DNA from: Methanomicrobiales archaeon
Lineage (GTDB): Archaea > Halobacteriota > Methanomicrobia > Methanomicrobiales > Methanospirillaceae
DNA length: 23,020 nucleotides
Assembly (NCBI GenBank): GCA_037137755.1
Contig: JBAXJR010000035.1
Coordinates: 1 to 23,020, forward strand
Direction: 5' to 3'
The translations under genes and the position numbers were made by a program. The notes below the pieces were generated by a model. The model saw only the letters and a program-made list of their open reading frames with translations, made no database searches and was not told where the DNA came from. Position 1 is the first letter of the stretch, and each line of letters starts with the position of its first letter. Shown one piece after another: positions 124 through 22,865 of the stretch.

Positions 124-336
124 TTATACGATTTCCAGCGCGGGTTTTAAGACCGTTCTGGCCACCATTTTCAGTACAATCCGAATCAAGCCTGTACCTT
201 GCAGGGTGTTTGATTCATCATTATCGAGGCTTACTATGTTACCATTATGAGTATATAATGGCTTCCACGTGTCGTTTTCATGAAGGTGAAGAGGTAGGCA
301 TCGAAACGATTCACACCTTTCACCATCATCTGACAT
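124..336 (-). CDS. Possible small hypothetical protein (70 aa); may be non-coding
   Basis: ATG-started ORF in a gap with no other convincing gene; no recognisable motif or clear RBS. Confidence 0.2.
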   Translation of the reverse strand: MSDDGERCESFRCLPLHLHENDTWKPLYTHNGNIVSLDNDESNTLQGTGLIRIVLKMVARTVLKPALEIV

Positions 337-552: not shown

Positions 553-565
553 TCACGCAGCGGCA

Positions 566-1288
566 TTATTCCACTGCACGCGCAAGTGGTATAATGTAGA
601 GGTCCCCGAGAAACTCTTCCTGTTCCATCAGGATATCTCCCTCAAACATGAGGAAGAGAAGAGGGATGTAGACTTCCGGAATGCTCCAGCCTAATTTTTC
701 CGTAAGTTCTGTAAGTGCAATACGCTCATTACCCGGGCATGATTCCGTGCAGCAGGAGAGCACCCGTGCGGCAGCATCCTGGTAACCTTCCTCGTGAGCG
801 ATGCTCACGACGTCGTCTGCATCAAAATACTCCTCAGGACCATAGGAGCGGAGGCGCTGTCTCCGCCGTTCCTCTTTCTCCGCGTTCTTCAGCTCGGTAA
901 TCAGTTCATACAACGTGATGGGATGGCGCCTGAACTGCTTTCTGTCAAGCCTGCGCTTTATCTCGCGTTCAAGCCGGTCAACAGGGCCAAGCCTCCCGCT
1001 CACTTCCCCATTGATATCAAAGTCAAAATCGTCAGATTCATCCGATATTTCGTCATCTTCAAAGCTGATATCGACATCCTGTGCCAGTTGTTCAAGGTGG
1101 TCGGACTTCATCCTGAGAAGGAGCGCCGCATAGAAAAGTGTGCGCCCCGATATGCGCAGGTCCAGCTCCTTCCTTCGTTCAAGTTCAGATAAAAAACGGT
1201 CGGTAACCTCGACAATGTCGATATTCCAGGGATCGATCTCCCCGCGCTCAGCCATCTGGACAAGGATCTCGATAGGCTCCTCAGCCAT
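566..1288 (-). CDS. scpA: Segregation and condensation protein A (kleisin)
   Basis: N-terminal 'GEIDPWNIDIVEVTDRFL...SGRTLFYAALLLRMKS' kleisin motif, acidic linker, C-terminal winged helix 'YIPLLFL...QEEFLGDLYI'; overlaps smc 3' end by 8 nt. Confidence 0.95.
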   Translation of the reverse strand: MAEEPIEILVQMAERGEIDPWNIDIVEVTDRFLSELERRKELDLRISGRTLFYAALLLRMKSDHLEQLAQDVDISFEDDEISDESDDFDFDINGEVSGRLGPVDRLEREIKRRLDRKQFRRHPITLYELITELKNAEKEERRRQRLRSYGPEEYFDADDVVSIAHEEGYQDAAARVLSCCTESCPGNERIALTELTEKLGWSIPEVYIPLLFLMFEGDILMEQEEFLGDLYIIPLARAVE

Positions 1289-4200
1289 TCACTTTCACTC
1301 CGGTGACCAGCGTGCTCTTATCGGATCGGACGGTCACACCCATGATACGGTCAGCCCCGTCAATCATCGGTTTCCTGAGTGAGACAATCACAAACTGGGA
1401 CGTCCCCGCACTCGCACGGATCATCTTAGCGATGCGTTCTGCATTTGAACCGTCGAGAGACATATCAACTTCATCAAATGCGTAAAATGGCGCGGGGATA
1501 TATTTCTGGATTGAAAAAATGAACGCAAGAGTGGTGAGTGACTTCTCACCCCCGGAGAGTGAGTTCAGGAGGTGTACTTTTTTATCCCTCGGCTGCACCG
1601 CAAATGAAAGACCCCCTGCGAACGGATCTTCCTCGTTTTCCAGGACAAGGTGACCGTTGCCGCTCGTGAGGGTCGCAAATATCTCCCTGAAATTTCCATC
1701 TATTGCCTGGTATGCCTTGGTAAACGCTTCAAATTTCATCTTGCCAAAGGTCTCTATCCGGTCAAGGAGGGTCGTACGCTCTCTCGACAACACTTCCTTT
1801 CGCGCGGTCCGGTCCTCGGCACGCTTCTCAACCTTATCGTACTCTTCGATTGCAAGCATGTTAACCGCGCCAATCTTCCTCATCGCATGGCCTGCTTCTG
1901 CAATGCCATCATCGATCTGCTGGAGGGTCAGATCCGTGGTAGCAACCCCTGCTTCAGGTTTCATGGCAGCGATCTCCTCTTTAAGAGTGTTTTCCCGCTC
2001 CAGAAGCGCGGAAAGTTGTACCCGTGCCCTTTCGAGTAAGGAATCAAATTCCAGGATCTTCTTCTCAGAATCGAGAAAATGCCCCATGGCATCTTCCCGT
2101 TTGGCCCTCAGACCTTCAAGTTCTCCTGAAAACAGCTTTTGTTTCTCTTCGAGTGCCGCAATCTCACCTTTCGCTGAATCAATCGACAGTTTCAGCGATG
2201 CGGTCTCCCTGTCAATCTCGTTGTTGCGGTCCTGGACCTTTTCGAGTTCCTCTTTCAGGTCGCTCATCCGCTTGGTAAAATGAAGGCGCTCCCGCTGGAG
2301 ATCGGTGATATCAGACTCCTTTTCACGGAGCCTTCGTTCAAGCCCTTCCAGCTCTTTCCTCCAGTGGTCCCGTTCTTCGGTAAGGGCAGGGATCCGGGTC
2401 CCTTCAAGCCTCTTTTTGATGACCTCCATATCGAGGTTCAGCTGGCCGATCTCCTCTGTTATCTCATCAAGGGTCTTCTCAAGCGCTGCAAGCTCCTGTC
2501 CACCCTTCTGCATCTCGGTTTCAAAGGTATTCAGTGTCGAGATGAGTGCGTCGCGTTCGAGGGTAAGATCTTCAATCTGCCGGGAATATTCGTCCAGTGC
2601 CATCCGGTTCCGCTCGGTAACCTGGGAGAGTTCGGCCCTTGCGTGTCGCTTTTCATCGATCACCGAACTGCTGCCTTTAATGGCCGATTCAAACTCTTCT
2701 GCTTCCTCGCGAAGTTCACTGATGCGGACCCTGAGACGGTCTATTTCATCTCCAACCGCTGCACCAAATCCTTTCAGACTTTTCTTGAAAAATCCACCGG
2801 TCATTGCACCGGAACGTTCAAGGAGTTCACCATCGAGGGTAACCATCCGGTGCTGGCCAATCATTTTTCGTGCCCGGTCAAGGGAGTTGACAACGACAGT
2901 CCCTCCGAAAACAACCCCGAATGCATCGCGGAACCGCGGATCAAACGTGAGCAGGTTTATTGCATAGTTTATAACACCCTCATCCCTGATTGCCGCGTAC
3001 TCCTGTTTCTTCAGCCGGGTGAGAGGCAGGAATGTGACCCGGCCCAGTTTTTCCTCTTTTAAGTAACGGATCGCCTGGGCAGCGACGGAATCATTCTCGA
3101 CCACCACGTAGTGGAGTTTTCCACCTGCCGCCACATTCAGCGCAGTCGCATACTCAGACGGGGTCTGGCCGAGTTGCATGACCGTCCCGATGACCCCGTC
3201 CATGGCAAGAACGGTCTTCAGGACACTGCCTCCTGCTTCGCCCCGTGCCTGTGCCTGGGCTTCAAGCCTGACGACGTCCTTTTCAAGGGTCTGGAGTTCC
3301 TCCCTTGTATCTTCAAGCATCTTCCTCTTTGAGAAGGAACCACTTTCGATGGCAGACAACTCCCGGGTAATCTTTCCCTGCTCCTCCCCTGCCTTCACAG
3401 ATTCAGCAGCCAAAGATTCCTTAAGCGACACCTTTTCCGCAATGTTTATTTCTATGGCCTTAATCCGTTCTGAGTGCCGCTCTTTCTCGGTCGTCCTCAT
3501 CCTGCTTCTTTCAATAAGCATGTCCTGCTGGTGAATAATATCCGACCTGGCCCCTCTTTTCTCTTCAATTGTTTTCATTAGGGAGAACAGCTGGTCACGT
3601 GACCCTTCGGCCTCTTTGCTTTCGTTTTTGATCGCAGTTTCGGTCTTTTCAAACTTTGCCCGCGCTGTAGCCGCCTCCATGGCGAGATTTGTCCGGTCAA
3701 TATTCTGGTTCCGGATCCCATCATTGCATTCAGTTATCCGTGTCTCGGCCCTTTTGGTATCCAGGTAATTGCGGGTAATGGCTTCAAGATTGACTTCCTT
3801 GTCCCTCTGGAGCCGTATTATTGTCTGTTCAGCTACTTTTATCGAACCTTTCAGCTCTTCAAGTGAGGATAGCAGTTTCAGGTAATCTGCACCGCTCTTC
3901 TGGTTTATCTGCTCGTCGATCTCCTTTAAGTCAGCCCGGAGGTAGGAAAGTTCATTTTCCTCGATACTCCGGTCTGACTGTATTCGCTGGATTTGAACAT
4001 TCTGATCCTCGATCAGCCCACTCAGTGCCAGCAGCTCTTTTTCACGTTCGCGGATACTCGCAGCAAGCCGGGCATTCTCGAAAAACTGAAGCTTGTTCTG
4101 CCATTCCTGGTATTTCAGCGCCTGCTCACGTTCCTGCTTCAGCTCAACCAGGCGCTTGTTAAGCTCGATGAGCAGCATCTCCTCGCGCTCAATCCGCTCC

Positions 4201-4721
4201 CTGACGACCTCAAGTTCACCCAGTGCCTGGTCCCTTTTCGAATCAAACTCGGCCACACCGGCAATCTCATCGATAATTTTTCTTCTTTCGTAGTCACTCA
4301 TTTCAATAATGCGGGTGATGTCGCCCTGCATCACCACGTTGTACCCGTGAGGTTTAATCCCGACTTTAGCAAGGAGCTCAATGATATCAGTCTGTTTACA
4401 GAGCCGATCATTAAGGTAATTATAACTGTAATACCCGTTTCCGGTCCTTTTAATACGGCGACGTATTTTTGTACCATCAGAAAAAGTAATAGATACTTCG
4501 GCGGTATTTTTCCCGGAGTTCAGGTTGATCAGGTCAGTAAGTTTCTCCGCGCGAAGGTTTCGTGAGCTGGAAAGAGCGAGGACAAAAAGAATGCTATCAA
4601 CAATATTACTTTTCCCCGACCCATTCGGACCCGAGATTACCGTAAATCCTTCAAAAAATGGTATTTTTGTCTTTTTGGAAAATGACTTGAAATTATCTAT
4701 CTCGAGCTCACTGATATACAA
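1281..4721 (-). CDS. smc: Chromosome segregation protein SMC
   Basis: 1146 aa; Walker A GPNGSGKS, Q-loop VMQGD, long coiled coils, hinge 'VTLDGELLERSGAMTGG', signature LSGGEKS, Walker B FYAFDEVD; TTG start preceded by GGAG. Confidence 0.98.
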   Translation of the reverse strand: MYISELEIDNFKSFSKKTKIPFFEGFTVISGPNGSGKSNIVDSILFVLALSSSRNLRAEKLTDLINLNSGKNTAEVSITFSDGTKIRRRIKRTGNGYYSYNYLNDRLCKQTDIIELLAKVGIKPHGYNVVMQGDITRIIEMSDYERRKIIDEIAGVAEFDSKRDQALGELEVVRERIEREEMLLIELNKRLVELKQEREQALKYQEWQNKLQFFENARLAASIREREKELLALSGLIEDQNVQIQRIQSDRSIEENELSYLRADLKEIDEQINQKSGADYLKLLSSLEELKGSIKVAEQTIIRLQRDKEVNLEAITRNYLDTKRAETRITECNDGIRNQNIDRTNLAMEAATARAKFEKTETAIKNESKEAEGSRDQLFSLMKTIEEKRGARSDIIHQQDMLIERSRMRTTEKERHSERIKAIEINIAEKVSLKESLAAESVKAGEEQGKITRELSAIESGSFSKRKMLEDTREELQTLEKDVVRLEAQAQARGEAGGSVLKTVLAMDGVIGTVMQLGQTPSEYATALNVAAGGKLHYVVVENDSVAAQAIRYLKEEKLGRVTFLPLTRLKKQEYAAIRDEGVINYAINLLTFDPRFRDAFGVVFGGTVVVNSLDRARKMIGQHRMVTLDGELLERSGAMTGGFFKKSLKGFGAAVGDEIDRLRVRISELREEAEEFESAIKGSSSVIDEKRHARAELSQVTERNRMALDEYSRQIEDLTLERDALISTLNTFETEMQKGGQELAALEKTLDEITEEIGQLNLDMEVIKKRLEGTRIPALTEERDHWRKELEGLERRLREKESDITDLQRERLHFTKRMSDLKEELEKVQDRNNEIDRETASLKLSIDSAKGEIAALEEKQKLFSGELEGLRAKREDAMGHFLDSEKKILEFDSLLERARVQLSALLERENTLKEEIAAMKPEAGVATTDLTLQQIDDGIAEAGHAMRKIGAVNMLAIEEYDKVEKRAEDRTARKEVLSRERTTLLDRIETFGKMKFEAFTKAYQAIDGNFREIFATLTSGNGHLVLENEEDPFAGGLSFAVQPRDKKVHLLNSLSGGEKSLTTLAFIFSIQKYIPAPFYAFDEVDMSLDGSNAERIAKMIRASAGTSQFVIVSLRKPMIDGADRIMGVTVRSDKSTLVTGVKVNG

Positions 4722-4736
4722 AGACCGGGCTCCTGC

Positions 4737-5210
4737 CTATTTCTTTGACGATTCCTTTTCATCGTCCTCTGCCACGATAAGACTGCTCTTTTTCTGTTCC
4801 GTTGAAGAACCCATCTTCTTACGGCTGGCAAATCCGGCTGATGCGACGATATAGTGGTTGTCCCCGCGACGCTCCTCCATCTTCATCGTACCATCGGGCT
4901 GCATGATCATATCCATGTGTTTTTCTTCCACGACAGGAGCTGCTACACGTTCAGGAGCTGTTCCTTTTTTCTGCATTACAACGGTTCCGGATCCTGATTC
5001 CGGCTGGGCCTGGGGTTTCATCATCTTGAGCTCCTGCCTCCGTTCTTCAGAAAATTTATTCAGCCTCATCGCAATTGACTTTAGGTCAAGGAGTTCTTCC
5101 GTCAGACCCTTGACAAGCGCTTCCATCTCCTTCATCTTTCGTTCAAGAGCCACAACACGTTCCTCGGTCGTGATAACCGGGACATCAGTATTTTTAATAA
5201 TTTCAGCCAT
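4737..5210 (-). CDS. Uncharacterised protein with N-terminal coiled coil and charged, low-complexity C-terminus; probably co-transcribed with smc
   Basis: Heptad segment 'EERVVALERKMKEMEALVKGLTEELLDLK'. Start placed at ATG 5210 (MAEIIK) behind a purine-rich GGAAGGGGGA tract; upstream in-frame ATGs to 5261 are possible. Stop is 15 nt from the smc start. Confidence 0.8.
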   Translation of the reverse strand: MAEIIKNTDVPVITTEERVVALERKMKEMEALVKGLTEELLDLKSIAMRLNKFSEERRQELKMMKPQAQPESGSGTVVMQKKGTAPERVAAPVVEEKHMDMIMQPDGTMKMEERRGDNHYIVASAGFASRKKMGSSTEQKKSSLIVAEDDEKESSKK

Positions 5211-5641
5211 TAATTTTCCCCCTTCCGGGTCTTCGTAACTCATTTCCAATGATATAGCCATTATTTCGCATCATTAAAGACCCTTTAGGATAAACATGAG
5301 CCTGATTACGTATAATAATTATGCTCAGCGTTAATGCATACAATCGACCGTTTGTAAGACCAGGGCTCCAGCCTTTTATACATCTGCCCAACCTTCAGGA
5401 TTTTCTCCTTGTATGACCGACGGGTCTTTCTTGTATTCACCATTTGTCCTTGAAACGAAAAGTCGTAATCAGGGAGTCACACCCTGCTGCTTTCCAGGTT
5501 GCAGGTTTCCGCCCCACACATCATGACATCCACACCTTTTCGCCGCGGTTAACAAGTTTCTCGCTCATATTCGTGGGAATTCCCCGCGTATCCACCATGG
5601 AGAAGAAAAGGTATTACCATATCAGGACGACTTTTTTATAT

Positions 5642-6880
5642 ATGTCACATCTGTCTGCGACTGATCGTGAAATAGCCGATATAATAGAGAGAGAACGTCT
5701 TCGCCAGCTGAACGGGCTGGAACTGATAGCATCAGAGAATCTTGTCAGTAAGGCGGTACTGGAAGCGATGGGGTCGATAATGACCAACAAGTATGCCGAA
5801 GGTTACCCTGGAAAGAGGTACTACGGTGGCTGTGAATTTCATGATATGGCGGAAAACCTCGCCCGTGACCGCCTGAAAAAACTTTTTGGCGCACAGCATG
5901 CAAACGTCCAGCCGCATTCCGGGACCCAGGCGAACATGGCGGTATATTTTGCTTTCATGAAACTTGGCGAGACCCTCATGAGCATGAAGCTATCACAGGG
6001 AGGGCACCTTTCTCATGGGTCACCGGTTAGTTTTACAGGCCAGTTTTATAACGTAGCCCAGTATGGCGTTGATCCAAAGACCGAAGTCATTGACTACGGT
6101 GTTGTGGAAGAGCTTGCACGGAAAGCAAAACCAAAGATCCTCGTCTGTGGCGCGTCTGCATACCCACGCACCATAGACTTCAAGGCATTCCAGGAGATCG
6201 CCGATAGCGTAGGCGCGTACTGCATGGCAGATATTGCGCATATCGCCGGGCTTTGTGCGACAGGGGTCCACCCGAACTCGGTAGGCGTGGTCAATTTTAC
6301 GACGACGACGACCCACAAAACACTCCGCGGACCCCGCGGCGGGGCAATAATGTGTAATACCGAATATGCGCAGGCAATCGACAAGGCCGTATTTCCCGGT
6401 ATGCAGGGGGGTCCGCTGATGCATACCATTACAGCGAAAGCCGTATGTTTCCATGAGGCGCTCCGCCCTTCATTTACTGACTACAGCAGGCAGATCGTGA
6501 AAAACGCAAAGGCGATGGCAGATACCCTGTTAGAGCACGACCTCAGGCTGGTCTCAGGCGGGACTGATAACCACCTCATCCTCCTCGACCTTACCGCACA
6601 GGGGATCACCGGTCTCGAAGGGGAAGTCGCACTTGGCAAGGCAGGTATCACGGTCAATAAGAATACGATACCCAATGAAAACCGGAGCCCGTTCGTTACG
6701 AGCGGTCTTCGGATCGGCACACCGGCAGTAACGAGCCGTGGCATGAAAGAAGAGCAGATGCACCTGATTGGTGACTACATCGCATCGATCCTGAAAGACA
6801 TCAGCAATACCGCACAGATTGCCCGGATTGGAAAAGAAGTCACCGCAATGGCAGGCAACTACCCGCTTTACCCTGAATAA
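5642..6880 (+). CDS. glyA: Serine hydroxymethyltransferase (bacterial-like, probably THF-dependent)
   Basis: 'LIASEN', '[18 protein letters not shown]', 'GGHLSHG', PLP-lysine motif '[14 protein letters not shown]', 'SGLRIGTPA'. Start set at ATG 5642 (MSHLS); the ORF-track extension to 5444 does not look like SHMT. Confidence 0.97.
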
Positions 6881-6881
6881 C

Positions 6882-7724
6882 ATGATTATCGATGGCAGGA
6901 TGGTTGCACAAAAACGGCTGGACCTGGTCCGTAACCAGGTAGATGCATCTGGCCGACAACCCTGTCTTGCAACAGTCCTTGTAGGGGAGGACCCCGGCTC
7001 AAAGATGTATGTGCGGATGAAGCATGAGGCCTGTGAAAAGGTACATATTGTTTCAGTAAAGGCGGACCTGCCCGCTACCGCCACCAACGCGGAGGTCCTC
7101 GCGAAAATCAGGGATTTGAATAATAATCCATCGATCGATGGTATCCTCGTTCAGCTCCCCCTGCCACCCCAGGTGGATACCAGCAGGGTGATCCAGGCAG
7201 TCGCCCCGGAGAAGGACGTGGACGGTTTTCATCCCTGTAATATTGGCCTCCTCTATGCGGGGACACCGAGGTTCGCTCCATGCACCCCAAAAGGCATCAT
7301 AACGCTCCTTGATGAATACAATATTCCACTCCGGGGGGAGAGGGCCCTGGTGGCAGGACGGAGTATCGATGTTGGGCGGCCTATGGCCGCATTACTTCTT
7401 CACCGCGATGCGACGATTACGATAGCCCATTCAAAGACCAGGGACTTAAAGGAAGAGATGATGCGGGCTGATATCGTAGTCAGTGCGATCGGAAAACCCA
7501 GGTTTATCAGCGCGGATATGATTAAACCCGGGGCGGTGATAATCGATGTCGGGATCAACTACTTTGACGGAAAACTATGCGGGGATGTAGACTTTGACCA
7601 TGTAAAAGATGTTGCAGGGGCAATAACTCCAGTACCGGGTGGTGTGGGTCCGATGACGATCGCTTCACTCATGGAGAACACGTACATGGCAGCAATGGAA
7701 CGTTCATGCATCCATGTACCATAA
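6882..7724 (+). CDS. folD: Bifunctional methylene-THF dehydrogenase/cyclohydrolase
   Basis: 'MIIDGR', 'YVRMK', '[10 protein letters not shown]', 'KDVDGFHP', 'PCTPKG', 'DVGIN', '[11 protein letters not shown]'; ATG 1 nt after glyA stop. Confidence 0.97.
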
Positions 7725-8521
7725 ACGGGATGAAAATCGGGGGTGGTGCACCCGTCAGGACCATGGGGGTCATCAATTGCAGCCCGGAATCCTTTTTTTT
7801 GGGATCATACCGTTCAGGTAAGGATATTAGTCAGCGTGCCACGGAAATGGTTGCCCAGGACGCTGATATCATCGACATCGGGGCACGAAGTACCTCCCCC
7901 GTTGCACCCCGGGTAAGCCCTTCCCGCGAGGCAGAACGAATTGTGGCCGCCCTCAAGGAACTTGACGGGACCGGGGTAACGATCTCTGTTGATACCATGC
8001 GGCCCGCCGTGCTCAGGCAGTGCCTGAAATTCGATATCCACGCCATTAACGATATTAATGGCCTTGCTAACCCCGAATATGCAAAAATGGCCGCAGATTC
8101 CGGGCTCCCCTGTTTCCTGATGGCATCCACGGCCACACCTGGTGACTCAACAGACCTGGCAGGTACCTTCAATGCATTGCAGCTCGTCACATCGCGGTGC
8201 GAGTCCCTTTCAATCAGGGAATATGTCCTTGACCCGGGCGTTGGTTTATGGAACCCTGGTCGGAACATAGCCCTCGACTGGGAGCTCTGCCGGCAGTTCC
8301 AGGAATTTAAAAAATTCAACCACCCCCTGCTTGTTGCAATATCCCGTAAGACCTTTATCGGGCATCTTCTCTGCCGGAAACTTCCCGAAGAGCGACTCGC
8401 AGGTAGCCTGGCCCTGACAGCCCTCCTTCTTTCGAAAGGCGCAGCTATTGTCCGGTGTCATGATGTAAAAGAAACGCGGGATGCAATTTGCGTATTTGAA
8501 ACAATGGAGAAAACCGGATGA
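7706..8521 (+). CDS. folP: Dihydropteroate synthase family protein
   Basis: '[11 protein letters not shown]', 'IIDIGARST', 'ISVDT', 'INDING', 'LDPGVG', 'ISRKTFIG', 'IVRCHDV'; overlaps folD end by 19 nt. Confidence 0.9.
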
Positions 8522-9300
8522 ATGCCGAATATCAGGTCAGGGGAGTTTCCACCGGGATTATCAGTCCCGGTGACGATATCGTTTCAGTCCTCACCCATGC
8601 ATTATCATGCACAAATGAGGTGCTTCTTGAGGGAGACATCATTGTTATTGCCGAATCAGCCCTCGCAACCGCGGAAGGTCGTCTGATCGATCTCGACGAA
8701 GTCACACCATCCGTGAAGGCTCTGGCACTTGCAGATGAATTCGCCATGGACCCACGGGAAGTTGAGGTCGTCATCCAGGAAAGCGACAGTATTGTCGGGG
8801 GAATTCCAGGGTTCCTGCTCTGCATGAAAAACGGGACTCTGCTCCCCAATGCCGGTGTGGATGCGTCAAATGCTCCACCCGGGTATCTTGTACCACTCCC
8901 GTCGGATCCTGATGCAAGCGCAGACCGGATCCGGCGGGAAGTTATCAGCCGCTGCGGGGTGAATACCGGGGTGATTGTGGCAGACAGCAGGACACATGCA
9001 ATGAGAGTGGGGTGCAGCGGTGTCGCAATCGGGTGTGCAGGGATCCCATCCGTGATAGACGATCGCGGGAGATGTGACCTTTTTGGGCGGAAACTCCTGG
9101 TGACAAAAAGGGCAATTGCAGATAACATCGCAACAGCTGCCGAGCTGGTTATGGGTGAAGCCGATGAATGCATGCCTATCGCAATTGTCCGGGGCCTGGG
9201 ACTCACCCTGTCAGAGGAGATCGGAATCGAGGCGATTGCTGCAGAAGAATGCCTGTTTATGGGCACGTTGAGGAACATCAGTAAAAAAGGGAATGATTGA
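8518..9300 (+). CDS. cofE: CofE-family gamma-glutamyl ligase (F420-0:glutamate ligase or folate-glutamylating paralogue)
   Basis: 'PNAGVDASN', 'DPDASA..IR', 'RGRCDLFGRKLLVT..AIAD', 'LVMGEADECMPIAIVRG'; ATGA overlap with folP. Family secure, substrate uncertain. Confidence 0.85.
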   Translation: MNAEYQVRGVSTGIISPGDDIVSVLTHALSCTNEVLLEGDIIVIAESALATAEGRLIDLDEVTPSVKALALADEFAMDPREVEVVIQESDSIVGGIPGFLLCMKNGTLLPNAGVDASNAPPGYLVPLPSDPDASADRIRREVISRCGVNTGVIVADSRTHAMRVGCSGVAIGCAGIPSVIDDRGRCDLFGRKLLVTKRAIADNIATAAELVMGEADECMPIAIVRGLGLTLSEEIGIEAIAAEECLFMGTLRNISKKGND

Positions 9301-9374
9301 TCCCGGGATTGGGCAGTCCTGTCATTGTTATTGGGATAATATGCTATTAGAAACGGACATGCCAAAGCAGCACC

Positions 9375-9384
9375 TTTTTATTTT
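9375..9384 (+). terminator. Candidate oligo(T) terminator of the glyA-folD-folP-cofE operon
   Basis: TTTTTATTTT between convergent cofE-like and peroxiredoxin genes. Confidence 0.4.
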
Positions 9385-9419
9385 CCGCCTTGTAACAGAC
9401 CTGCCGGGTGAGAGTTCGG

Positions 9420-9905
9420 TTATGCCGGACTTTTTAGGAATCTGATAATTTCACTGATATCAGGAATACTATGGACCGGATATACCTTAACAAATAATAC
9501 ATTCTGGTTTTCATCCACGATGATATTTGCCCTTTCTGAAAATCCATTGGTATCCCTGAAGATTCCATACGTCCTTGCCACGTTCCCGTGAGGCCAGAAA
9601 TCGCAGAGTAACCTTGTATTCTTAATGCCAAGAGATTCCGCCCATGCCCTTTTACAGGGGATCGAATCAACACTGATCCCTACCGCAAGCGTGTCGAGGG
9701 ATTCCAGCACTTCACGGTTTTTTTCAAGCGAGTCCATCTGTCCTGCACAGAACGGTGTCCACGCAAGGGGATGGAATGAAAGAAGCGTTTTTTTCCCTGA
9801 ATTTTCAAGGAGGTCAAACGTTTTGTCATTCTGGTCCTTAAGAGAGAAATTTTTCCCGATATCCCCGGGTCGTACCATTGGTGGTTGCTCCGTTCTATCT
9901 GCCAT
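9420..9905 (-). CDS. Peroxiredoxin, AhpC/TSA superfamily (AhpE-like)
   Basis: Peroxidatic PxxxTxxC motif 'FHPLAWTPFC', 'DFWPHG.VA..YG', 'SERA'. Start set at ATG 9905 (MADRTE) with AGGA upstream; the track start 9944 is possible. Confidence 0.9.
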   Translation of the reverse strand: MADRTEQPPMVRPGDIGKNFSLKDQNDKTFDLLENSGKKTLLSFHPLAWTPFCAGQMDSLEKNREVLESLDTLAVGISVDSIPCKRAWAESLGIKNTRLLCDFWPHGNVARTYGIFRDTNGFSERANIIVDENQNVLFVKVYPVHSIPDISEIIRFLKSPA

Positions 9906-10081
9906 AGTAAGTTCCTGCCTTTGATCAGATAAGAGACCTTTCATCAGGAGTCAGGATAAGGCAATGGCATTAGTTGAGGTATCGAGGGGGGAACTCCCGC
10001 TATTCCGGGCACATTCAGATGAATGAGGTTACCGGTTTTTCTGCTGCATAGGTAATTCCAGGGATAATCCAGGTGTATTTA

Positions 10082-10711
10082 TTATTCTGTGTTCCGGGAC
10101 ACACCCACACGCCCTTTCTCTATCAATAGGGTGAACCCACATCGCTTCAGAAAATCAACCGCTTTCCCATGACCGTGGATCATCAGTTCCACGAGGTCTT
10201 CCCGCTCATCAACGTCTGTATGGATCCGGAACGAGTCGACGATTTCACAGGAAAGCCCCGCCTTCTTTGCGATTTCCCGGTGTTTTAAGAAACTTGCCCC
10301 ATAATAATCAACATGGAACCGGGAACAGTCTTTGATAAATATCGCATTCGTCCCCCCACCCCTGCCCGGGCCAAGTGCCATGTCACAAGTGGTGGATATC
10401 ATCCGCCGGATGACATCAGGTGTTACCAGCGGTAAGTCTGCCATGATGATGAGCAAAGGTCCTTGCGAACTCCCGATAAGGCCGTTCAGTGCGGGGTTCA
10501 GCTCCTCGGCAGAAACGTTAACTTTCGCATATGCACAGTGGAGAGGGACAGTTGAGAGAATAAATGGGTTGCATCCGGCTTCCTTAAGAGACAGTATTAC
10601 ATCGGTCAGCATCGCTTCCGCGAATAATTCACGTTCTGCAGTTGACAGCACAGATGACAGCCGGCTCTTCGGGTTCACCGGTTTGAATGGGACCACGGCC
10701 TCGATGGACAT
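10082..10711 (-). CDS. cofC: 2-phospho-L-lactate (PEP) guanylyltransferase, F420 biosynthesis
   Basis: 'AVVPFKPVNPKSRLSSVL', 'AMLTDV', 'IMADLPL', 'GRGGGTNA', 'YYGASFLKH', 'DVDE.EDL'. Confidence 0.95.
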   Translation of the reverse strand: MSIEAVVPFKPVNPKSRLSSVLSTAERELFAEAMLTDVILSLKEAGCNPFILSTVPLHCAYAKVNVSAEELNPALNGLIGSSQGPLLIIMADLPLVTPDVIRRMISTTCDMALGPGRGGGTNAIFIKDCSRFHVDYYGASFLKHREIAKKAGLSCEIVDSFRIHTDVDEREDLVELMIHGHGKAVDFLKRCGFTLLIEKGRVGVSRNTE

Positions 10712-10819
10712 TTCATACGAATAGCACTACGGACATCAAAAATCCATCGTTTTTATGCGGATCGATCAATAAATTACCAAAGAACTCCCATCAAGAGTAG
10801 CAACCGGTGTACCCGTACC

Positions 10820-11809
10820 ATGAACAGGAACATTATAACCTTTTCAAAAAATGTCTTCCTGCCGCTCACCACCGTCTGCCGCAACCGGTGTGAGTACTGC
10901 TGTTTCCGGACACCCGTAACAGAACACTGCATTATGCAACCGGGTGATGCAGAACAAACCCTGGCCTGCGGTGCAGCGAAAGGCTGTACAGAGGCACTTT
11001 TTACCTTTGGTGAACGGCCCGAAGAGGAGCCGGGGTTTAAATCCCTTATCAACAGGGTGGGTTATGACAATATTCTCCAGTACTGTCATGCCCTCTGTCA
11101 AAAAAGCATGGGAACCGGTATCCTGCCCCATACGAATGCAGGAATCCTGACTGCAGAGGAACTGGAGTATTTGAAACCCGTAAATGCCAGCATGGGCCTG
11201 ATGCTGGAGACAACCGCAGAAATTCCCGCACATCGTAATTCACCAGGAAAAGTCCCGGAAATCAGGATTGAAATGATCGAAAATGCAGGAATGCTGCAGA
11301 TCCCGTTCACCACGGGGCTCCTTCTTGGTATTGGTGAGACGATGCAGGACCGCGAGGAATCACTCATGGTGATACGTGACCTTCACAAACGGTATGGCCA
11401 TATCCAGGAAGTGATAATTCAGAATTTCTGCCCGAAACCCGGGACACCGATGAGCAGAAGGCAGGAGATCGGTTTTGATGAGATGTGTAGGGTGATAGGG
11501 ATCGCGCGTGACCTCCTTCCGGACGACGTGGCCATACAGGTAGCGCCGAACCTCGCGGATGCTGCATCCCTGATCCCGTGTGGTGTTAATGACCTGGGAG
11601 GGATATCCCCGTTGACAATCGATTATGTGAACCCTGAACATCCATGGCCGGGGGAAGACGAACTCAGGCGCTCGTCGGGGAATTATAACCTCCAGGAGCG
11701 CCTCTGCATTTATCCCCGGTTTATAGAGAAGGGCTGGTATTCAGACGAATTAGAACCACTTATTAAGCGCCTTGTGCAACATTTAACGGACAGGAGACCC
11801 ACGTCATGA
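10820..11809 (+). CDS. cofG: FO synthase subunit 1 (radical SAM)
   Basis: 'ITFSKNVFLPLTTVCRNRCEYCCF' (CxxxCxxC), 'EALFTFGERP', 'LPHTNAG', 'SMGLMLE', 'PFTTGLLLGIGET', 'DLGGISPLTIDYVNPEHPWP'. Confidence 0.96.
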   Translation: MNRNIITFSKNVFLPLTTVCRNRCEYCCFRTPVTEHCIMQPGDAEQTLACGAAKGCTEALFTFGERPEEEPGFKSLINRVGYDNILQYCHALCQKSMGTGILPHTNAGILTAEELEYLKPVNASMGLMLETTAEIPAHRNSPGKVPEIRIEMIENAGMLQIPFTTGLLLGIGETMQDREESLMVIRDLHKRYGHIQEVIIQNFCPKPGTPMSRRQEIGFDEMCRVIGIARDLLPDDVAIQVAPNLADAASLIPCGVNDLGGISPLTIDYVNPEHPWPGEDELRRSSGNYNLQERLCIYPRFIEKGWYSDELEPLIKRLVQHLTDRRPTS

Positions 11810-17058: not shown

Positions 17059-18021
17059 TCAGTACCCTCTGGTCACGAAATAGTCCCCGATATCTATGAG
17101 GAGACTTTTTGCCTCCGAGTCAGGCAGTATTGAAACAATTTCTTTTCCTTTCCGGACAAGTTCCAGGGCAGTCTCTCTCACTTCCCCGATTACCCCGAGG
17201 GAATCAAGCCTTTCAATAAGATCATCTATCTCCTTGTTGGTCAGCTCACGTTTATATTCAGAAAGATCCAGGCCTTTTTCTTTTGCTTTAAGGGTAATAA
17301 GCGTCTGTTTGCCCTCCCGGATATCAGATGCGCGGTCCTTGCCGCTCTTTTCAGGAGTAGTCATGATATCGATCAGGTCATCCTGGATCTGAAAGGCCAT
17401 ACCGGTATAAAGCCCGTAATGATAGAGCGCGTGGGTCTTGACGGCATTCCCGCCAGCGAGTATACTCCCGATACCAGCTGATGCGGCATACAGTGCGCCG
17501 GTCTTCTTGGAGACCATCTCGAGATACTCCCCAACCGTTACATCGTTGCGTTTCTCGAACGACATGTCCATGTGCTGGCCATTGCAGATTTCAACGCAGG
17601 CTGCTGCAAGCATCGAGATCGCCCGTACTTTGGCATTGTCTGATGCCTGTGAAATACTGATAAACTCGAATGCACGAGCATAGAGCACATCCCCGGCAAG
17701 AATCGCAGTAGCGTCATCCCACTTTGTGTGGACAGTCGGGACACCCCGGCGAAACGCATCACCATCCATGATGTCATCATGGATCAGGGTAAAACTGTGG
17801 GTCAGTTCAAGCGCCAGTGCCGCAGGCATTACCTCATCTGAGCTCCCTCGTTTCACTGCATCCGCAGCGAGCATTACCACGGCCGGGCGCAGACGTTTTC
17901 CACCGGCAAGCAGGAGATGGGCACTTGCTTTCCCTAACTCCAAAAATTCATCACCAAAAAACCGGTCGATCATCCTGTCAACCTGTTTCTGTGTTGAATC
18001 CAGATACTCCATCAGATCCAT
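17059..18021 (-). CDS. idsA: Short-chain polyprenyl (geranylgeranyl) diphosphate synthase
   Basis: 'GGKRLRP', FARM 'FTLIHDDIMD' with aromatic residue at -5, 'RRG', 'GQ', 'KT', SARM 'FQIQDDLID'. Confidence 0.93.
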   Translation of the reverse strand: MDLMEYLDSTQKQVDRMIDRFFGDEFLELGKASAHLLLAGGKRLRPAVVMLAADAVKRGSSDEVMPAALALELTHSFTLIHDDIMDGDAFRRGVPTVHTKWDDATAILAGDVLYARAFEFISISQASDNAKVRAISMLAAACVEICNGQHMDMSFEKRNDVTVGEYLEMVSKKTGALYAASAGIGSILAGGNAVKTHALYHYGLYTGMAFQIQDDLIDIMTTPEKSGKDRASDIREGKQTLITLKAKEKGLDLSEYKRELTNKEIDDLIERLDSLGVIGEVRETALELVRKGKEIVSILPDSEAKSLLIDIGDYFVTRGY

Positions 18022-18039
18022 GATTGTCTCCAGTTATTG

Positions 18040-19377
18040 TTAGTTTATTTTTATCTTCTGCCCATTTGACATGATATGCACGTCATTATGGAGGGTATAA
18101 CCAATTCCCGCTGCAAATTCTGCGTAGGCAGATGTCATCCGGATATTCCCGTGCGCCGGGATGATATGTTGTGGGTTCAACAGGTGGATGAATTCATAAT
18201 GGTCCTCGCGATACGCATGCCCACTCACGTGGAGGTCTTCAAAAACCCTCGCCCCGGACATTCCAAGACGTGCTTCCACCATGTAGCGCTGGCCCCGGTT
18301 CATGGGGTTAGGAATAACTTTTGCTGAAAATATGACTTTATCACCTTTTTCAAGCTGGTACGGGGTGTCGCCAAGCGCCAGGCGCGTGAGGATTGACCCG
18401 GGTTCACCCTGGTGACCGGTAATGATGGGGAGGAATTTTTCCTTACCGGACTTCATAATCCGCCTCAGCATGCGGTCAACCGTCCTCCGCTCCCCGAACA
18501 TACTTACCGTATCTGGGAATGCAACGAGTTTCATCTGCTCGGCAATGGAACTGTAACGCTCCATTGACCGCCCAAGGAGTACGGGTTTCCTCCCAATCTC
18601 GTGGGCACACTCTGCAATGGTTTTTATCCTGGCGATATGCGATGAGAAGGTGGAGACAAGGATGGCATTTTTATCGTCCTCGTAGCTGGTGATGGTATCC
18701 CTTACAAGGTCCCTTGCAATCCGTTCACTTGGTGCACGCCCGCTATTCTCAACATAGGTACTCTCGACGATCAGCGCAATGACACCTTCTTTTCCGATCT
18801 GGGCAAGGCGGGCAAAATCAGGAGGCTCCCCAATCACCGGTGTGCGGTCCAGTTTATAATCACACGAATATACGATGGCCCCGTGTGGTGTATGAAGAAC
18901 CGGTATAACGGTATCAATAATACTGTGCTGCATCCTTACAAACTCAAGGACAAGGTTCTGTGAAAGTGTATACTTCTGGCCGGCCTTTAATGCGAATAAC
19001 TTGTTATTAACCCCGAATTTCTGTTCCCCCGAAATCTGCTGCCTTATTAACTCGGTAGTATAGGGTGTACTGATGATCGGGGCATTATAGCGGTGTGCAA
19101 GTTTTGGTATGGCTCCGATGTGGTCAAGGTGCCCGTGAGAACAGACAATTGCCTTGACACTCCCTTCAACGGTATTCATCACGGTATCGTCAGGGATTGC
19201 CTTCATCTGGATCAGGTCCAGAGAATGCATATTTTCCAACTCGGCATCCTCATGGATCATGACCTGGTCAAGCCGGAGACCCATATCGAAGATAACAATC
19301 TCTTTCCCGCAGCGGACGGCGGTCATATTCCTCCCGACCTCGTCATATCCGCCAACTGCAATAATTTCAATATCCAT
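18040..19377 (-). CDS. rnj: Ribonuclease J (beta-CASP metallo-beta-lactamase)
   Basis: 'GGYDEVGRNMT', 'SHGHLDHIGA', 'HSI', 'FSSHIAR', 'TGHQGEP', 'HVSGHA', 'PAHG'. Confidence 0.95.
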   Translation of the reverse strand: MDIEIIAVGGYDEVGRNMTAVRCGKEIVIFDMGLRLDQVMIHEDAELENMHSLDLIQMKAIPDDTVMNTVEGSVKAIVCSHGHLDHIGAIPKLAHRYNAPIISTPYTTELIRQQISGEQKFGVNNKLFALKAGQKYTLSQNLVLEFVRMQHSIIDTVIPVLHTPHGAIVYSCDYKLDRTPVIGEPPDFARLAQIGKEGVIALIVESTYVENSGRAPSERIARDLVRDTITSYEDDKNAILVSTFSSHIARIKTIAECAHEIGRKPVLLGRSMERYSSIAEQMKLVAFPDTVSMFGERRTVDRMLRRIMKSGKEKFLPIITGHQGEPGSILTRLALGDTPYQLEKGDKVIFSAKVIPNPMNRGQRYMVEARLGMSGARVFEDLHVSGHAYREDHYEFIHLLNPQHIIPAHGNIRMTSAYAEFAAGIGYTLHNDVHIMSNGQKIKIN

Positions 19378-20458
19378 TATATTCCTCCATTATACTGTCC
19401 ACCATCTCACGGATTTTCCCGGTAATAATTGCATGTTTTGCCTTAAGATCTGAGATAGTACGAGACCCGGTCAGGAACATCGCTACCCTGAACTGGTGCT
19501 CAATCGTATCAATCGCGTCGAACAACGCTTTTTCTCCTGCCAATGCAGGTTGTAAGAGTGGCAATGCCATTCCACAGAGGTCAGCCCCGAGCACAACGGA
19601 CTTTGCCATATCCACGCCACTCCTGATACCACCCGTGGCGATTATGGGCCCGCCAGTCCGGGATACATCACACAGGCTCACGACAGTGGGTATCCCCCAG
19701 TCTGTAAATTCCAGGCCAAGGCCGATCAGTCCCTTATCTCTCTCGCTTGGACTTTCCTCTGCCCTTATACCCTCAATTGCGGCCCAGGATGTACCACCCC
19801 AGCCGCCAATATCAATGGCCTTTGCACCTGCTCCAAAGACTGCACCGGCAGTCTCTGCTGAAATTCCACTCCCGGTTTCTTTTACGATTACCGGGTACTT
19901 AAAATCTTCACATAATGTCCTGAGTGCACCGAGGCACCCTGAAGCATCATGGTCTCCCTCGGGCTGGATTGCCTCCTGCAGAAAGTTGACATGGATGGCG
20001 ATGGCATCTGCCCGGATCATCGATACAGCACGGTCAGCCCATTCATTTCCATGGTCACGGAGCTGGACAATCCCGAGGTTCGCGACCAGGAAGGCATGGG
20101 GCGCTTCATCCCTTGCAACTGAAAATGTTTCTTCCAGGTCCGGGTTTTGAAGGGCGGCCCGTTGTGACCCCACACCCATCCCGATACCATACGTATGGGC
20201 AGCTCTTGCAAGGCGCCTGTTAACCTCAAGGGTCTCAGGGTGACCACCTGTCATCGCAGCGATGAACAGGGGGAATTTACACTGGTGCCCGAGAAACCGG
20301 GTCCCGGTATCTATCCGGTCCATGTTACATTCAGGCAGGGCATTATGGACAAGCCGGACATCATCAAACCCGGTGTACCCGCGTTCTATTGACTTATCGG
20401 TACATATGCGGAGATGGTCCAGTTTCCTCGAAGAGGTGAGTGATACAGGGTCAGACAT
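19367..20458 (-). CDS. fni: Type 2 (FMN-dependent) isopentenyl-diphosphate isomerase
   Basis: 'RKLDH', 'AMTGG', 'GVGSQR', 'NFLQEAIQPEGD', 'KETGSG', 'GGTSW', 'GGIRSGVD'. Start ATG 20458 behind GAGGGG (20464 possible). Confidence 0.96.
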   Translation of the reverse strand: MSDPVSLTSSRKLDHLRICTDKSIERGYTGFDDVRLVHNALPECNMDRIDTGTRFLGHQCKFPLFIAAMTGGHPETLEVNRRLARAAHTYGIGMGVGSQRAALQNPDLEETFSVARDEAPHAFLVANLGIVQLRDHGNEWADRAVSMIRADAIAIHVNFLQEAIQPEGDHDASGCLGALRTLCEDFKYPVIVKETGSGISAETAGAVFGAGAKAIDIGGWGGTSWAAIEGIRAEESPSERDKGLIGLGLEFTDWGIPTVVSLCDVSRTGGPIIATGGIRSGVDMAKSVVLGADLCGMALPLLQPALAGEKALFDAIDTIEHQFRVAMFLTGSRTISDLKAKHAIITGKIREMVDSIMEEYNGY

Positions 20459-21215
20459 GCACAAAACCCCTCACTTTTGTGCCGCCATGCGGCAGAGCAT
20501 CAAGAAAGTCGCCAATCCTTGAGACATGGAAGATATCTGACGGGATCCCCGCTTCGGCAAGCTGGCAAAGCTCTTTCACCTTTCCCCTCATCCCCCCGGT
20601 GACATCAGTATGACGTGAATCCCCAAGCAGGAGAGTATCTGCCATCGCAGGTGTGATCTCGGGCAGCACACGCCCATCACTGTACACACCCGGTACATCC
20701 GTGGCAAGTCCGATGCGCTGCATGCCAAGAGAGAGAGATAGTACCCTTACCAGCTGGTCACCTGATACCACACATGCGCCTGATGTACAATCCATAACCA
20801 TGTCCCCATGAAGGACCGGGACAATCCCAAGATCGAGCATGCATTCAAGCTGCCGGTACTCGCATGAGATGAGCCGCCCCTTATCCGCAATGCAGGCTGA
20901 AAGGGGCTGTACACCCACGGCTTCCACTCCTGATCCGCGTAACGCCCGGACGATAGAGTCATTCAGTCTTCTGACCGCCATGTGTGTAATAAATATCCCT
21001 TCACGATTTTCTGCAGAAACCCCGGAACTTACCCGGTACCGACTCGCTTCGGGGTGACCGCAGGAACCTGCGCCATGCACTATCACGAGTGATATCCCTT
21101 TCCGCTCGGCTATTGTTTCTGCGATCCATTCGATCTCGTCGGACCGGATGATGCCATCTGCAGCCTTATCAGTGATTACGCTGCCACCCAGTTTCAGGAG
21201 AACCCGTTCAGACAT
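20451..21215 (-). CDS. ipk: Isopentenyl phosphate kinase
   Basis: Amino-acid-kinase fold 'LKLGGSVITDK', 'VHGAGSCGH' (catalytic His), 'PVLHGD', 'SGD', 'DVTGGMRGK'; lies between mvk and fni. Confidence 0.93.
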   Translation of the reverse strand: MSERVLLKLGGSVITDKAADGIIRSDEIEWIAETIAERKGISLVIVHGAGSCGHPEASRYRVSSGVSAENREGIFITHMAVRRLNDSIVRALRGSGVEAVGVQPLSACIADKGRLISCEYRQLECMLDLGIVPVLHGDMVMDCTSGACVVSGDQLVRVLSLSLGMQRIGLATDVPGVYSDGRVLPEITPAMADTLLLGDSRHTDVTGGMRGKVKELCQLAEAGIPSDIFHVSRIGDFLDALPHGGTKVRGFVHV

Positions 21216-22077
21216 CCTTCTCCTTCCTCATCCCCTCGGTATCGATATTGGTAACAAAGGCACGTGCCTCGCATACCTCAATCGCGCTTGCAACACGGCT
21301 TTTCAGGTGCTTCGGGCATAACGCAACCATGCAGCCCCCACCACCGGCACCGGTAATTTTAGCCCCGTATGCACCTGCAGCCCTGGCAGACAGAACAAGC
21401 CGCGACAATGTGGGATGACCGACACCAAGCACATCGAGAAGCGAGTGGTTCATGTTCATCAGCCTCCCGAGCTGGACAGGATCGATCAGGTGATGCATCG
21501 CGCACATTGTTATCCCCCCGATCGCATCAAGGACAGGGTCACATATTTCCGGGTTTTTTTTCTTCAGGTCGGCAACCATCTCGACCATTTTTGATGTGCT
21601 GTGGGAGACCATGGAGTTCCCGATAACCATCTGGAAGCTTTCCGGTGGCAGGCGCCGTCTCGACGAACCCATGATGAAAACCAATCCCCCATAGGTGGAC
21701 ACCGTGGTGTCCGTAAGGCTGGCCCGCCCTTTCTGGACTTTCTTTTCAATATTAAAAGCCATTTCCGCGATCTGCTCCCGGGAATAGTTTATATCGAATT
21801 CGTCGTTGATCGCGGCAAGTGTTGCGACCGTGACTGCCGCTGAAGACCCGAGGCCCGATGAACTCGGTAGCTGGGAGTTGATGTACACGCTTCCTTTTAC
21901 CCCCATCTCATCAAAACAACTGTCAATATACGGAGATTTTGCAGGGTGAGCAGTCCTGCTTTTCCGGACGGTAACAAAAACGCGGGGCTTGATTGCCATT
22001 GCGATGGCAGGTTTCCCATATACCACTGCATGCTCACCGAATAGGAAAACCTTTCCGGGTGCACTCCATGTGACCAC
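21208..22077 (-). CDS. mvk: Mevalonate kinase
   Basis: 'SAPGKVFLFGEHAVVYG', GHMP loop 'PSSSGLGSSAA', 'KITGAGGGGC'; GTG start overlapping the upstream TAG. Confidence 0.96.
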   Translation of the reverse strand: MVTWSAPGKVFLFGEHAVVYGKPAIAMAIKPRVFVTVRKSRTAHPAKSPYIDSCFDEMGVKGSVYINSQLPSSSGLGSSAAVTVATLAAINDEFDINYSREQIAEMAFNIEKKVQKGRASLTDTTVSTYGGLVFIMGSSRRRLPPESFQMVIGNSMVSHSTSKMVEMVADLKKKNPEICDPVLDAIGGITMCAMHHLIDPVQLGRLMNMNHSLLDVLGVGHPTLSRLVLSARAAGAYGAKITGAGGGGCMVALCPKHLKSRVASAIEVCEARAFVTNIDTEGMRKEKDV

Positions 22078-22865
22078 TATATCACCGCGAGGGCTGCATA
22101 TCCCACAACAGCGGAATTATCCCCCGTAATGTCCCCGCTCGTGGCATAGTGGATTAATTCTGCTTTCCGGCCCCCGTCCATCTGGCACGCCAGGAGCATC
22201 GCGGAAATTGGCCCATAACCACATACCGTGATATTTCGTTCTCCGATACGACGGTAAAATTCAGGAATATCAAATGTGTTCAATGCCTCAATAGCATAGA
22301 GGTCATTGTTCCGTGCAACATCCGAAGGGACGTAATGAGAGAAATCTGATGATGCAATAATCCTGACATCCCGCCCCGTGCGCTTGACTGCACTGGTAAT
22401 CTGCTCCGACAATACCATTGCGCTCCTGTAATCCTGTCTTCCCATCATTACCGGTGTTATCCTTGCCCTTGGAAACCTGTACTTGATAAACGGGACCTGG
22501 ACTTCAAGGGAGTGCTCCTCCAGGTGTGAGATCTCATCAGGATCAATATTCAGGGCCTCACCTAATTCGGTGTCGTTGTCCACGATACCAAGTGGCGTCT
22601 CCCAGGGTACCATCGAAATGCATGTCTCAAAGCCGGGATGACTTGGGCCGACCAGGATAAATGTTCCGGAAAAACCGGGATTTATGGATGCATACGAAAG
22701 GGCAGCTACTCTCCCGGAATAGATATACCCGGCATGAGGTACGACGACCCCCTTCGAATTACGGCTGTTTCCGGCATCAGAAAAAAATTTAGCCAGCAGT
22801 TGTTCAAGGTGGTCCGGATCGCCTGGATAGAACATGCCTGATACAGCGCATGGACGCATCTTCAT
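22077..22865 (-). CDS. MEMO1 family protein
   Basis: 'RPCAVSGMFYP', 'PHAGYIYSG', 'GPSH', 'EHSLEVQVPF', 'SSDFSHY', 'CGYGP', 'VVGYA'; GAGGT RBS. Confidence 0.93.
   Translation of the reverse strand: MKMRPCAVSGMFYPGDPDHLEQLLAKFFSDAGNSRNSKGVVVPHAGYIYSGRVAALSYASINPGFSGTFILVGPSHPGFETCISMVPWETPLGIVDNDTELGEALNIDPDEISHLEEHSLEVQVPFIKYRFPRARITPVMMGRQDYRSAMVLSEQITSAVKRTGRDVRIIASSDFSHYVPSDVARNNDLYAIEALNTFDIPEFYRRIGERNITVCGYGPISAMLLACQMDGGRKAELIHYATSGDITGDNSAVVGYAALAVI

Follow-up and report, generated by a model that had tools for sequence, protein, structure and literature searches.

A small coiled-coil gene of family DUF7518 precedes smc and scpA across much of an archaeal phylum and may encode an accessory factor of Smc-ScpA

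INTRODUCTION

What is encoded by the small gene that heads the smc-scpA operon of a methanogenic archaeon, and does its product work with Smc-ScpA? Bacterial Smc requires ScpA together with the kite protein ScpB. The kite-less Smc-ScpA of Halobacteria and most Methanomicrobiales is therefore an acknowledged puzzle (PMC7055376; PMC11840125): scpB is reported in 0 of 285 Halobacteria and as absent from 25 of 28 Methanomicrobiales, and binding between archaeal ScpA and ScpB is reported as absent in vitro (PMC7055376). The DNA analyzed here, referred to as the window, is a stretch of 23,020 nucleotides from a Methanomicrobiales archaeon of the Methanospirillaceae (assembly GCA_037137755.1, contig JBAXJR010000035.1). 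A sequence-only reading had drawn attention to an unnamed coiled-coil protein encoded directly upstream of smc, and had proposed a conserved three-gene system in which this protein acts as a loader, a regulator, or a functional stand-in for the missing ScpB. Here, we examine the locus itself, the family to which the small protein belongs, its gene context across the phylum, its predicted architecture, and its relation to ScpB.

RESULTS

Organization and transcription of the locus

The features of the locus are listed in Table 1. The small gene ends at a TAG stop codon (4739-4737, minus strand) and encodes 157 aa if the ATG at 5210 is used, a start that has a Shine-Dalgarno-like run of G 7 nt to its 5' side. 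Close homologues are mostly 154-159 aa long and begin at the methionine equivalent to this ATG (Met-Ala-Glu or Met-Glu). A second in-frame ATG at 5261 may be an alternative start, giving 174 aa, and was kept as such because one RNA-library contig extends to 5265. The smc genes of relatives start at the same TTG or at GTG. Our ORF reading and terminator scan bore out what had been read at the junction between the two genes, namely a common strand, a stop codon 15 nt from the smc TTG, a ribosome-binding site in the gap, and no oligo-T. The consensus scan found no terminator-like site between the small gene and smc, and the sole operon-end site was the one at the end of scpA. In the upstream region, the AT-rich box may be a TATA box, part of a putative promoter.

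Table 1. Positions of the small gene, its operon partners, and its protein features in the window (residues refer to the 157-aa form)
Feature	Position	Strand	Detail or basis
Small gene, 157-aa DUF7518 protein	4737..5210	-	Stop codon included; ORF reading and Pfam PF24362
Spacer between small gene and smc, 15 nt	4722..4736	-	AGGAG (4730-4734), 8 nt before TTG; no T-run
smc, 1146 aa, TTG start (4721-4719)	1281..4721	-	TIGR02169, 1004 bits; SMC_N and SMC_hinge domains
scpA, 240 aa	566..1288	-	PF02616, E 2e-16; overlaps the smc end by 8 nt
Hairpin then T-run at scpA end, candidate operon end	554..580	-	Consensus scan
Upstream region, common to divergent glyA	5211..5330	-	GGGGG at 5218-5222; AT-rich box at 5311-5320
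Predicted coiled-coil helix, residues 15-64	5019..5168	-	AlphaFold2; canonical a/d heptads, residues 19-50
Core motif KGLTEELLDLK, residues 34-44	5079..5111	-	Family alignments
Predicted beta-hairpin, residues 99-113, core IMQPDGT	4872..4916	-	Only in Methanomicrobiales members
First IIVA-type motif, YIVA, residues 120-123	4842..4853	-	Sequence and alignment
Second IIVA-type motif, LIVA, residues 144-147, then acidic run	4770..4781	-	Sequence and alignment

On the 5' side of the small gene, glyA and further C1 and F420 genes are oriented the other way. The segment at 5444-11809 (both strands) is a C1-carrier and F420 gene cluster divergent from the operon, ordinary in a methanogen, with genes for serine hydroxymethyltransferase, a FolD-type dehydrogenase/cyclohydrolase, a pterin-binding enzyme, F420 gamma-glutamyl ligase, a CofC-type guanylyltransferase, a peroxiredoxin, and a radical SAM protein. 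Farther along, isoprenoid-lipid genes at 17059-22865 (minus strand) look like an archaeal mevalonate-pathway cluster; they include genes for a polyprenyl synthetase, an RNase J-type beta-CASP nuclease, an FMN-dependent dehydrogenase-type enzyme, an amino-acid-kinase-fold kinase, a GHMP kinase, and a Memo-like protein. Just 3' of scpA, past the terminator-like site, a 70-aa ORF (124-336, minus strand) gave no Pfam or NCBIfam match.

Parts of this stretch are present in twelve metatranscriptome runs, and the best four, from one study and at most three samples, were examined over positions 3900-5700. In three of these runs, contigs span the border from the small gene to smc (4644-5148, 4635-4772, and 4644-5044), with at least 31 nt on each side; they represent joined sequence present in RNA libraries rather than proof of one transcript, as DNA carry-over is possible. 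The contigs of these runs give no cover of smc at 4253-4634 or of the intergenic region at 5266-5660. At the haloarchaeal-type loci (L002-L031), about 27 nt separate the ATG of the small gene from a conserved TTTAT-type box on its 5' side. This is the distance of a TATA box and suggests that the haloarchaeal-type small gene carries the operon promoter and that the transcript is leaderless.

Family membership and homologues

The small protein passes the PF24362 cut-off of 27 bits in both its forms (29.8 bits at 174 aa; 30.3 bits at 157 aa), and scored 31.2 bits in a genome-wide profile search. It has a GLTEEL coiled coil and an IIVA-type motif in common with the haloarchaeal members, the best of which reach E 1e-33 as DUF7518 matches. 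By profile match and motif content, the small protein is a member of DUF7518 (PF24362), a catalogued family without assigned function. NCBIfam models gave no match to it. At E<=1e-3, 548 homologues were found; the close ones are named Methanoregula, Methanolinea, and Methanoregulaceae, and their annotation is always "hypothetical protein". The Pfam model is tuned to haloarchaea: it recognizes 27 of the 40 family members aligned here and misses Archaeoglobaceae-type and many Methanosarcinaceae-type proteins. A family profile searched against 1.84 billion representative proteins matched 673 clusters at E<=1e-3, of which 252 reached E<=1e-10, and the best 150 of the 673 were all 79-300 aa long. 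A search among longer proteins yielded no relatives of 276-2000 aa, which is weak evidence against fused forms. A search of the ESM Atlas returned DUF7518 clusters only.

Weak matches to generic coiled-coil families occurred among the 40 members (SlyX, 8/40; FlaC, 5/40; ZapB, 3/40). Weak sequence matches to solved structures, 6cfy (a UPF0335 coiled-coil chain; E 0.002) followed by CREB and GCN4, were rejected as compositional. No pairing with a paralogue was found on inspection of five second weak Pfam matches in haloarchaeal-type genomes, four of which are unrelated proteins of about 180 aa and one a 195-aa ORF; no ORF longer than about 600 aa lies within 4 kb of any of the five, so they do not stand beside an SMC-sized gene. 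Our literature search found no paper naming or describing the small gene or DUF7518, with supplementary tables, which might list the gene, outside its scope.

Gene context across the phylum

Gene context was surveyed in 301 genomes drawn evenly from the phylum of the window, using models for DUF7518, Smc (TIGR02169), and ScpB (PF04079); the families of the sample carry anonymised labels (f1, f2, etc.). DUF7518 matched in 148 of the 301 genomes at E<=0.01, with 84 above the cut-off. Adjacency was counted among the matches listed (150 in 137 genomes), with 20 further weak matches outside the count. Among these listed matches, 129 of the 137 genomes had DUF7518 immediately 5' of smc and on its strand, and adjacency by E-value was 80/80 at E<=1e-5, 124/130 at E<=1e-3, and 129/150 at E<=0.01. 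The 21 non-adjacent matches among those listed were all weak (E>=1.7e-4). Seven of the eight exception genomes are Methanosarcinaceae-type, and there Pfam had matched another coiled-coil ORF of about 1072 aa. Reading of the DNA upstream of smc revealed the true homologue in 13 of 13 such genomes, 42-138 nt away, with a GLVRELLD-like core and two motifs of the YIIA or FIVA kind.

Lineages in which the Pfam model finds little were read in the same place. Pfam-negative Archaeoglobaceae-type genomes had a homologue upstream of smc in 5/5 read, and in another genome of this type (G142) a weak Pfam match also adjoins smc. Homologues were likewise present upstream of smc in f16 (2/2), f30 (1/1), and f9 (1/2), and in a Pfam-negative genome of the window's own family. 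In f14, a coiled-coil protein occupies the same place in 3/3 genomes, with a related N-terminal helix and another C-terminal motif. This protein (L057-L059) is 139-157 aa long and has an RLE-type N-terminal helix and a conserved FFH/FFK followed by xxRN in place of IIVA; it may be a diverged branch of the family with another docking peptide. No homologue was found upstream of smc in f17, f18, and f24 (0/2 each), f11 (0/1), or f12 (0/3). In the f11 genome (L062, 1248-1457), a 69-aa ORF before smc has a GLTTELLD-like stretch and no other family features, and may be a remnant of the small gene. Across relatives, the gap from the small gene to smc ranges from about 1 to 138 nt, and at haloarchaeal-type loci it reaches 130 nt.

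Named genomes were scanned with an alignment of Archaeoglobaceae-type and Methanosarcinaceae-type proteins as the query, which gave 143 confirmed loci, of which 80 were kept. At 79 of these 80 loci, the DNA that follows encodes the N-terminus of Smc in the same orientation; at the remaining locus, the contig ends 575 nt after the match. These loci belong to Geoglobus, Archaeoglobus, Ferroglobus, Methanolobus, Methanohalophilus, Methanomethylovorans, Methanosalsum, and Methanococcoides, and to a Candidatus Methanovorans record. In f15, Smc, ScpB, and DUF7518 were each matched in 0/38 genomes; those listed are 91-99% complete, and f15 appears to be an SMC-less lineage inside the phylum. The gene arrangement of the proposed three-gene system was thus found in the sampled genomes, at the named loci, and in the 13 further Methanosarcinaceae-type genomes alike, and it is strongly supported that the order small gene-smc-scpA is conserved more widely than the Pfam family suggests.

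Predicted architecture of the small protein

AlphaFold2, run with a 26-sequence alignment, predicted a single long helix (pLDDT 87-97) and a short hairpin (pLDDT about 88) at the positions given in Table 1, with the rest of the 157-aa protein, including both IVA motifs, at low confidence. The helix has the 3-4 heptad spacing of a coiled coil, with hydrophobic residues at 19, 22, 26, 29, 33, 36, 40, 43, 47, and 50. The coiled coil noted in the sequence-only reading agrees with both the model and the heptads. Among the 26 Methanomicrobiales sequences, L36, E39, L41, D42, and K44 never vary, and conservation is 90% or higher at K34, G35, and T37. Several invariant or nearly invariant positions in this order face outward from the helix (E23, K34, G35, T37, E39, L41, D42, and K44), which suggests that the helix surface itself is a putative binding face beyond self-association.

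A common design could be traced across the family. It consists of an optional N-terminal helix, (D)(I/F)(V/I)IERLE, which is absent in the window's family and in haloarchaea; a core coiled coil with G-L-T-x-E-L-(L/V)-(D/E); a linker that varies freely in length and composition and is strongly acidic in haloarchaea; and a hydrophobic motif of four residues, present in one to three copies and usually with D, E, or Y before it and an acidic or small residue after it. The pattern [ILVFYM]I[IVY][AC] was present in 56 of 63 ORFs upstream of smc, against a mean of 0.94 and a maximum of 4 in 500 shuffles. The statement in the sequence-only reading that haloarchaea encode a protein with a similar GLTEEL coiled coil and a terminal IVA motif just upstream of smc proved accurate: all 30 haloarchaeal-type proteins read have GLT(E/D)EL and a C-terminal II(V/I)A, and the motif is single in 29 of them, the other (L022) having an additional internal copy. 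Archaeoglobaceae-type proteins have one copy and end in IIVCD, proteins of the window's order and of f10 mostly have two copies, and Methanosarcinaceae-type proteins have two or three. Conservation of the outward-facing coiled-coil residues and of the IIVA motif spans four classes.

Distribution of ScpB

In line with the lack of ScpB that had been supposed for this organism, the window's genome (90.6% complete) gave no PF04079 match, and neither did the 43 other genomes sampled from f1 (0/17), f2 (0/10), f3 (0/8), f4 (0/2), and f6 (0/6) in the same order. Nothing over the cut-off was found in the haloarchaeal-type families f13, f19, f21, f22, f25, f27, and f33; one weak ScpB match (E 7.8e-4) occurred among the 19 f13 genomes. 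The ScpB-less families comprise 90 genomes, and the small gene was verified beside smc in 89 of them; the ninetieth has a Pfam match to DUF7518 at a position outside those listed.

ScpB and the small gene occur together in 37/37 Methanosarcinaceae-type genomes, in 4/4 genomes of f5, which belongs to the window's own order, and in the f10, f16, f30, f34, and Archaeoglobaceae-type genomes examined. The small gene is accordingly not a simple replacement of ScpB, nor is ScpB loss a necessary consequence of having it. Of the two outcomes expected from a neighbourhood analysis by the sequence-only reading, adjacency to smc was found, and a general anti-correlation with scpB was not, ScpB being co-present in several lineages; the proposed role as a stand-in for ScpB is therefore too narrow. 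Among the lineages examined, those without the small gene keep ScpB (f17, 5/7; f18, 4/4; f24, 8/8; f11, 3/3). In f12, where three Smc-bearing genomes have no homologue upstream of smc, ScpB was matched in 1/5 genomes, which are 75-91% complete. In a control with Methanocaldococcus jannaschii, Smc was matched and ScpB and DUF7518 were not, within the limited sensitivity of the Pfam models; ScpB-less archaea with Smc thus need not all carry DUF7518. Methanococcales are reported to be without ScpB. The simplest history, which the f12 and M. jannaschii results limit, is that the small gene arose while ScpB was present and that ScpB was then lost at least twice, only inside the clade with the small gene. 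The ScpB open frames of Methanosarcinaceae-type genomes and f24 measure about 357-414 aa, against about 160-240 aa elsewhere, and seem to contain a large extension or fusion.

DISCUSSION

Our data lead us to lean towards the view that the small gene encodes a dedicated accessory factor of archaeal Smc-ScpA, expressed from the same operon. This explanation is preferred because the gene context is unusually consistent over a very deep clade, and it is this context that makes an association of the small protein with Smc or ScpA a candidate one. A complex prediction with the Smc head (N-terminal part, 1-215; C-terminal part, 905-1146), full ScpA, and the full small protein, based on 20-row alignments, scored 0.00 in both runs and gave no answer either way.

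An accessory factor of this kind could work as follows. The N-terminal helix would form a parallel coiled coil, most likely a dimer, with the conserved outer face around GLTEELLD as one contact surface. The flexible linkers would carry one to three IIVA-type hydrophobic peptides, flanked by acidic residues, that may dock into a pocket of a partner or extend its beta-sheet. One of these surfaces, either the helix face or the IIVA peptides, would hold Smc or ScpA, and the other would bind either another Smc-ScpA or a landmark on the chromosome or in the cell. The small protein might thereby function as a loader, a regulator, or a bivalent adaptor. With it present, the kite ScpB might also have become dispensable, which would have allowed its loss in Halobacteria and most Methanomicrobiales. 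A bolder version of this scheme, which we put forward tentatively and doubt more than we believe, would make DUF7518 a third kind of SMC-kleisin accessory, neither kite nor hawk: a dimeric coiled coil that holds Smc-ScpA via IIVA peptides, arose in the ancestor of Archaeoglobi, Methanosarcinia, Methanomicrobia, and Halobacteria, and took over enough of the ScpB role to permit two losses of the kite. On this bolder version, DUF7518 would be the missing subunit of the "binary" archaeal condensin.

Three other explanations were weighed. In the first, the small protein is co-transcribed for a separate role, as a division, segregation, or nucleoid-binding coiled coil that has only its dose tied to smc and makes no contact with Smc-ScpA. 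Operon partners may be functionally linked without physical contact, an IIVA peptide could fit any partner, and the weak matches to SlyX, ZapB, FlaC, and the UPF0335 chain of 6cfy would agree with a general coiled-coil function, although such matches are what coiled-coil composition alone would yield. Adjacency to smc without a robust exception over at least four classes would be unusual for genes that are merely dose-coupled, and genomes without Smc give no robust DUF7518 match. We regard this separate role as improbable.

Less probable still, in our judgment, is strict substitution, in which the small protein would sit on the middle of ScpA, where a kite would be, and do the job of ScpB. It draws on the occurrence of the gene in all 90 genomes of the ScpB-less families, 89 of them verified beside smc, on the confinement of the ScpB losses to the clade with the small gene, and on the published absence of scpB from all 285 Halobacteria and 25 of 28 Methanomicrobiales (PMC7055376). 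Against it stand the coexistence with ScpB in every Methanosarcinaceae-type and f5 genome sampled and in f10, f16, and Archaeoglobaceae-type genomes, a predicted model made up of helix, hairpin, and disorder rather than a winged-helix fold, the absence of a PF04079 signal from the small protein at E<=0.01, and M. jannaschii, which at Pfam sensitivity has Smc without ScpB or DUF7518. Finally, a leader ORF whose translation couples or tunes smc expression while its product has no role would suit the very short spacer, the smc ribosome-binding site just past the stop, and the weak TTG start, but is very improbable given that specific residues and motifs persist between very distant relatives whose proteins differ freely in length and linker, and that the haloarchaeal-type gap of up to 130 nt is too long for simple translational coupling.

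The small protein can be set beside several known systems. Like ScpB, it is small, is not an ATPase, has its gene within the smc-scpA operon or next to it, and is expected to be a dimer. ScpB is a tandem winged-helix protein, whereas the small protein is predicted to be a coiled coil with disordered tails bearing short motifs, and the two have no sequence similarity by PF04079. By profile and predicted fold, the small protein is not a kite. Bacterial SSB has an oligomerising N-terminal part, a disordered linker, and an acidic-hydrophobic C-terminal tip. By analogy, the small protein would combine an oligomerising N-terminal part with a long linker of low complexity, often acidic, and a very short peptide, first acidic and then hydrophobic, located at the C-terminus or close to it. 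It differs from SSB in that its putative oligomerization would use a coiled coil rather than an OB fold, and in that its peptide is IIVA-type and, in methanogens, internal and repeated.

Among published systems, the small protein RdfA comes closest. Of 54 RdfA-family genes, 42 stand directly beside an SMC-superfamily gene; in Haloferax volcanii, RdfA and Sph3 are both reported to be needed for the same phenotype, cell shape (PMC10869688). This pair is an earlier example of a small partner dedicated to an archaeal SMC-type protein. The partner of RdfA is Sph3 and not the canonical Smc (HVO_0689), and the passages of PMC10869688 consulted make no mention of the gene upstream of smc.

Because the small gene is short, conserved, placed at the head of smc-scpA, and found in all genomes sampled from the ScpB-less families, it is an obvious candidate for a helper of the kite-less Smc-ScpA of Halobacteria and most Methanomicrobiales. 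The candidate is directly testable in Haloferax volcanii, where genetics exist and for which Hi-C maps of the wild type and an smc deletion have been published (re-used in PMC11840125). The functional claim is a well-founded hypothesis that deserves follow-up.
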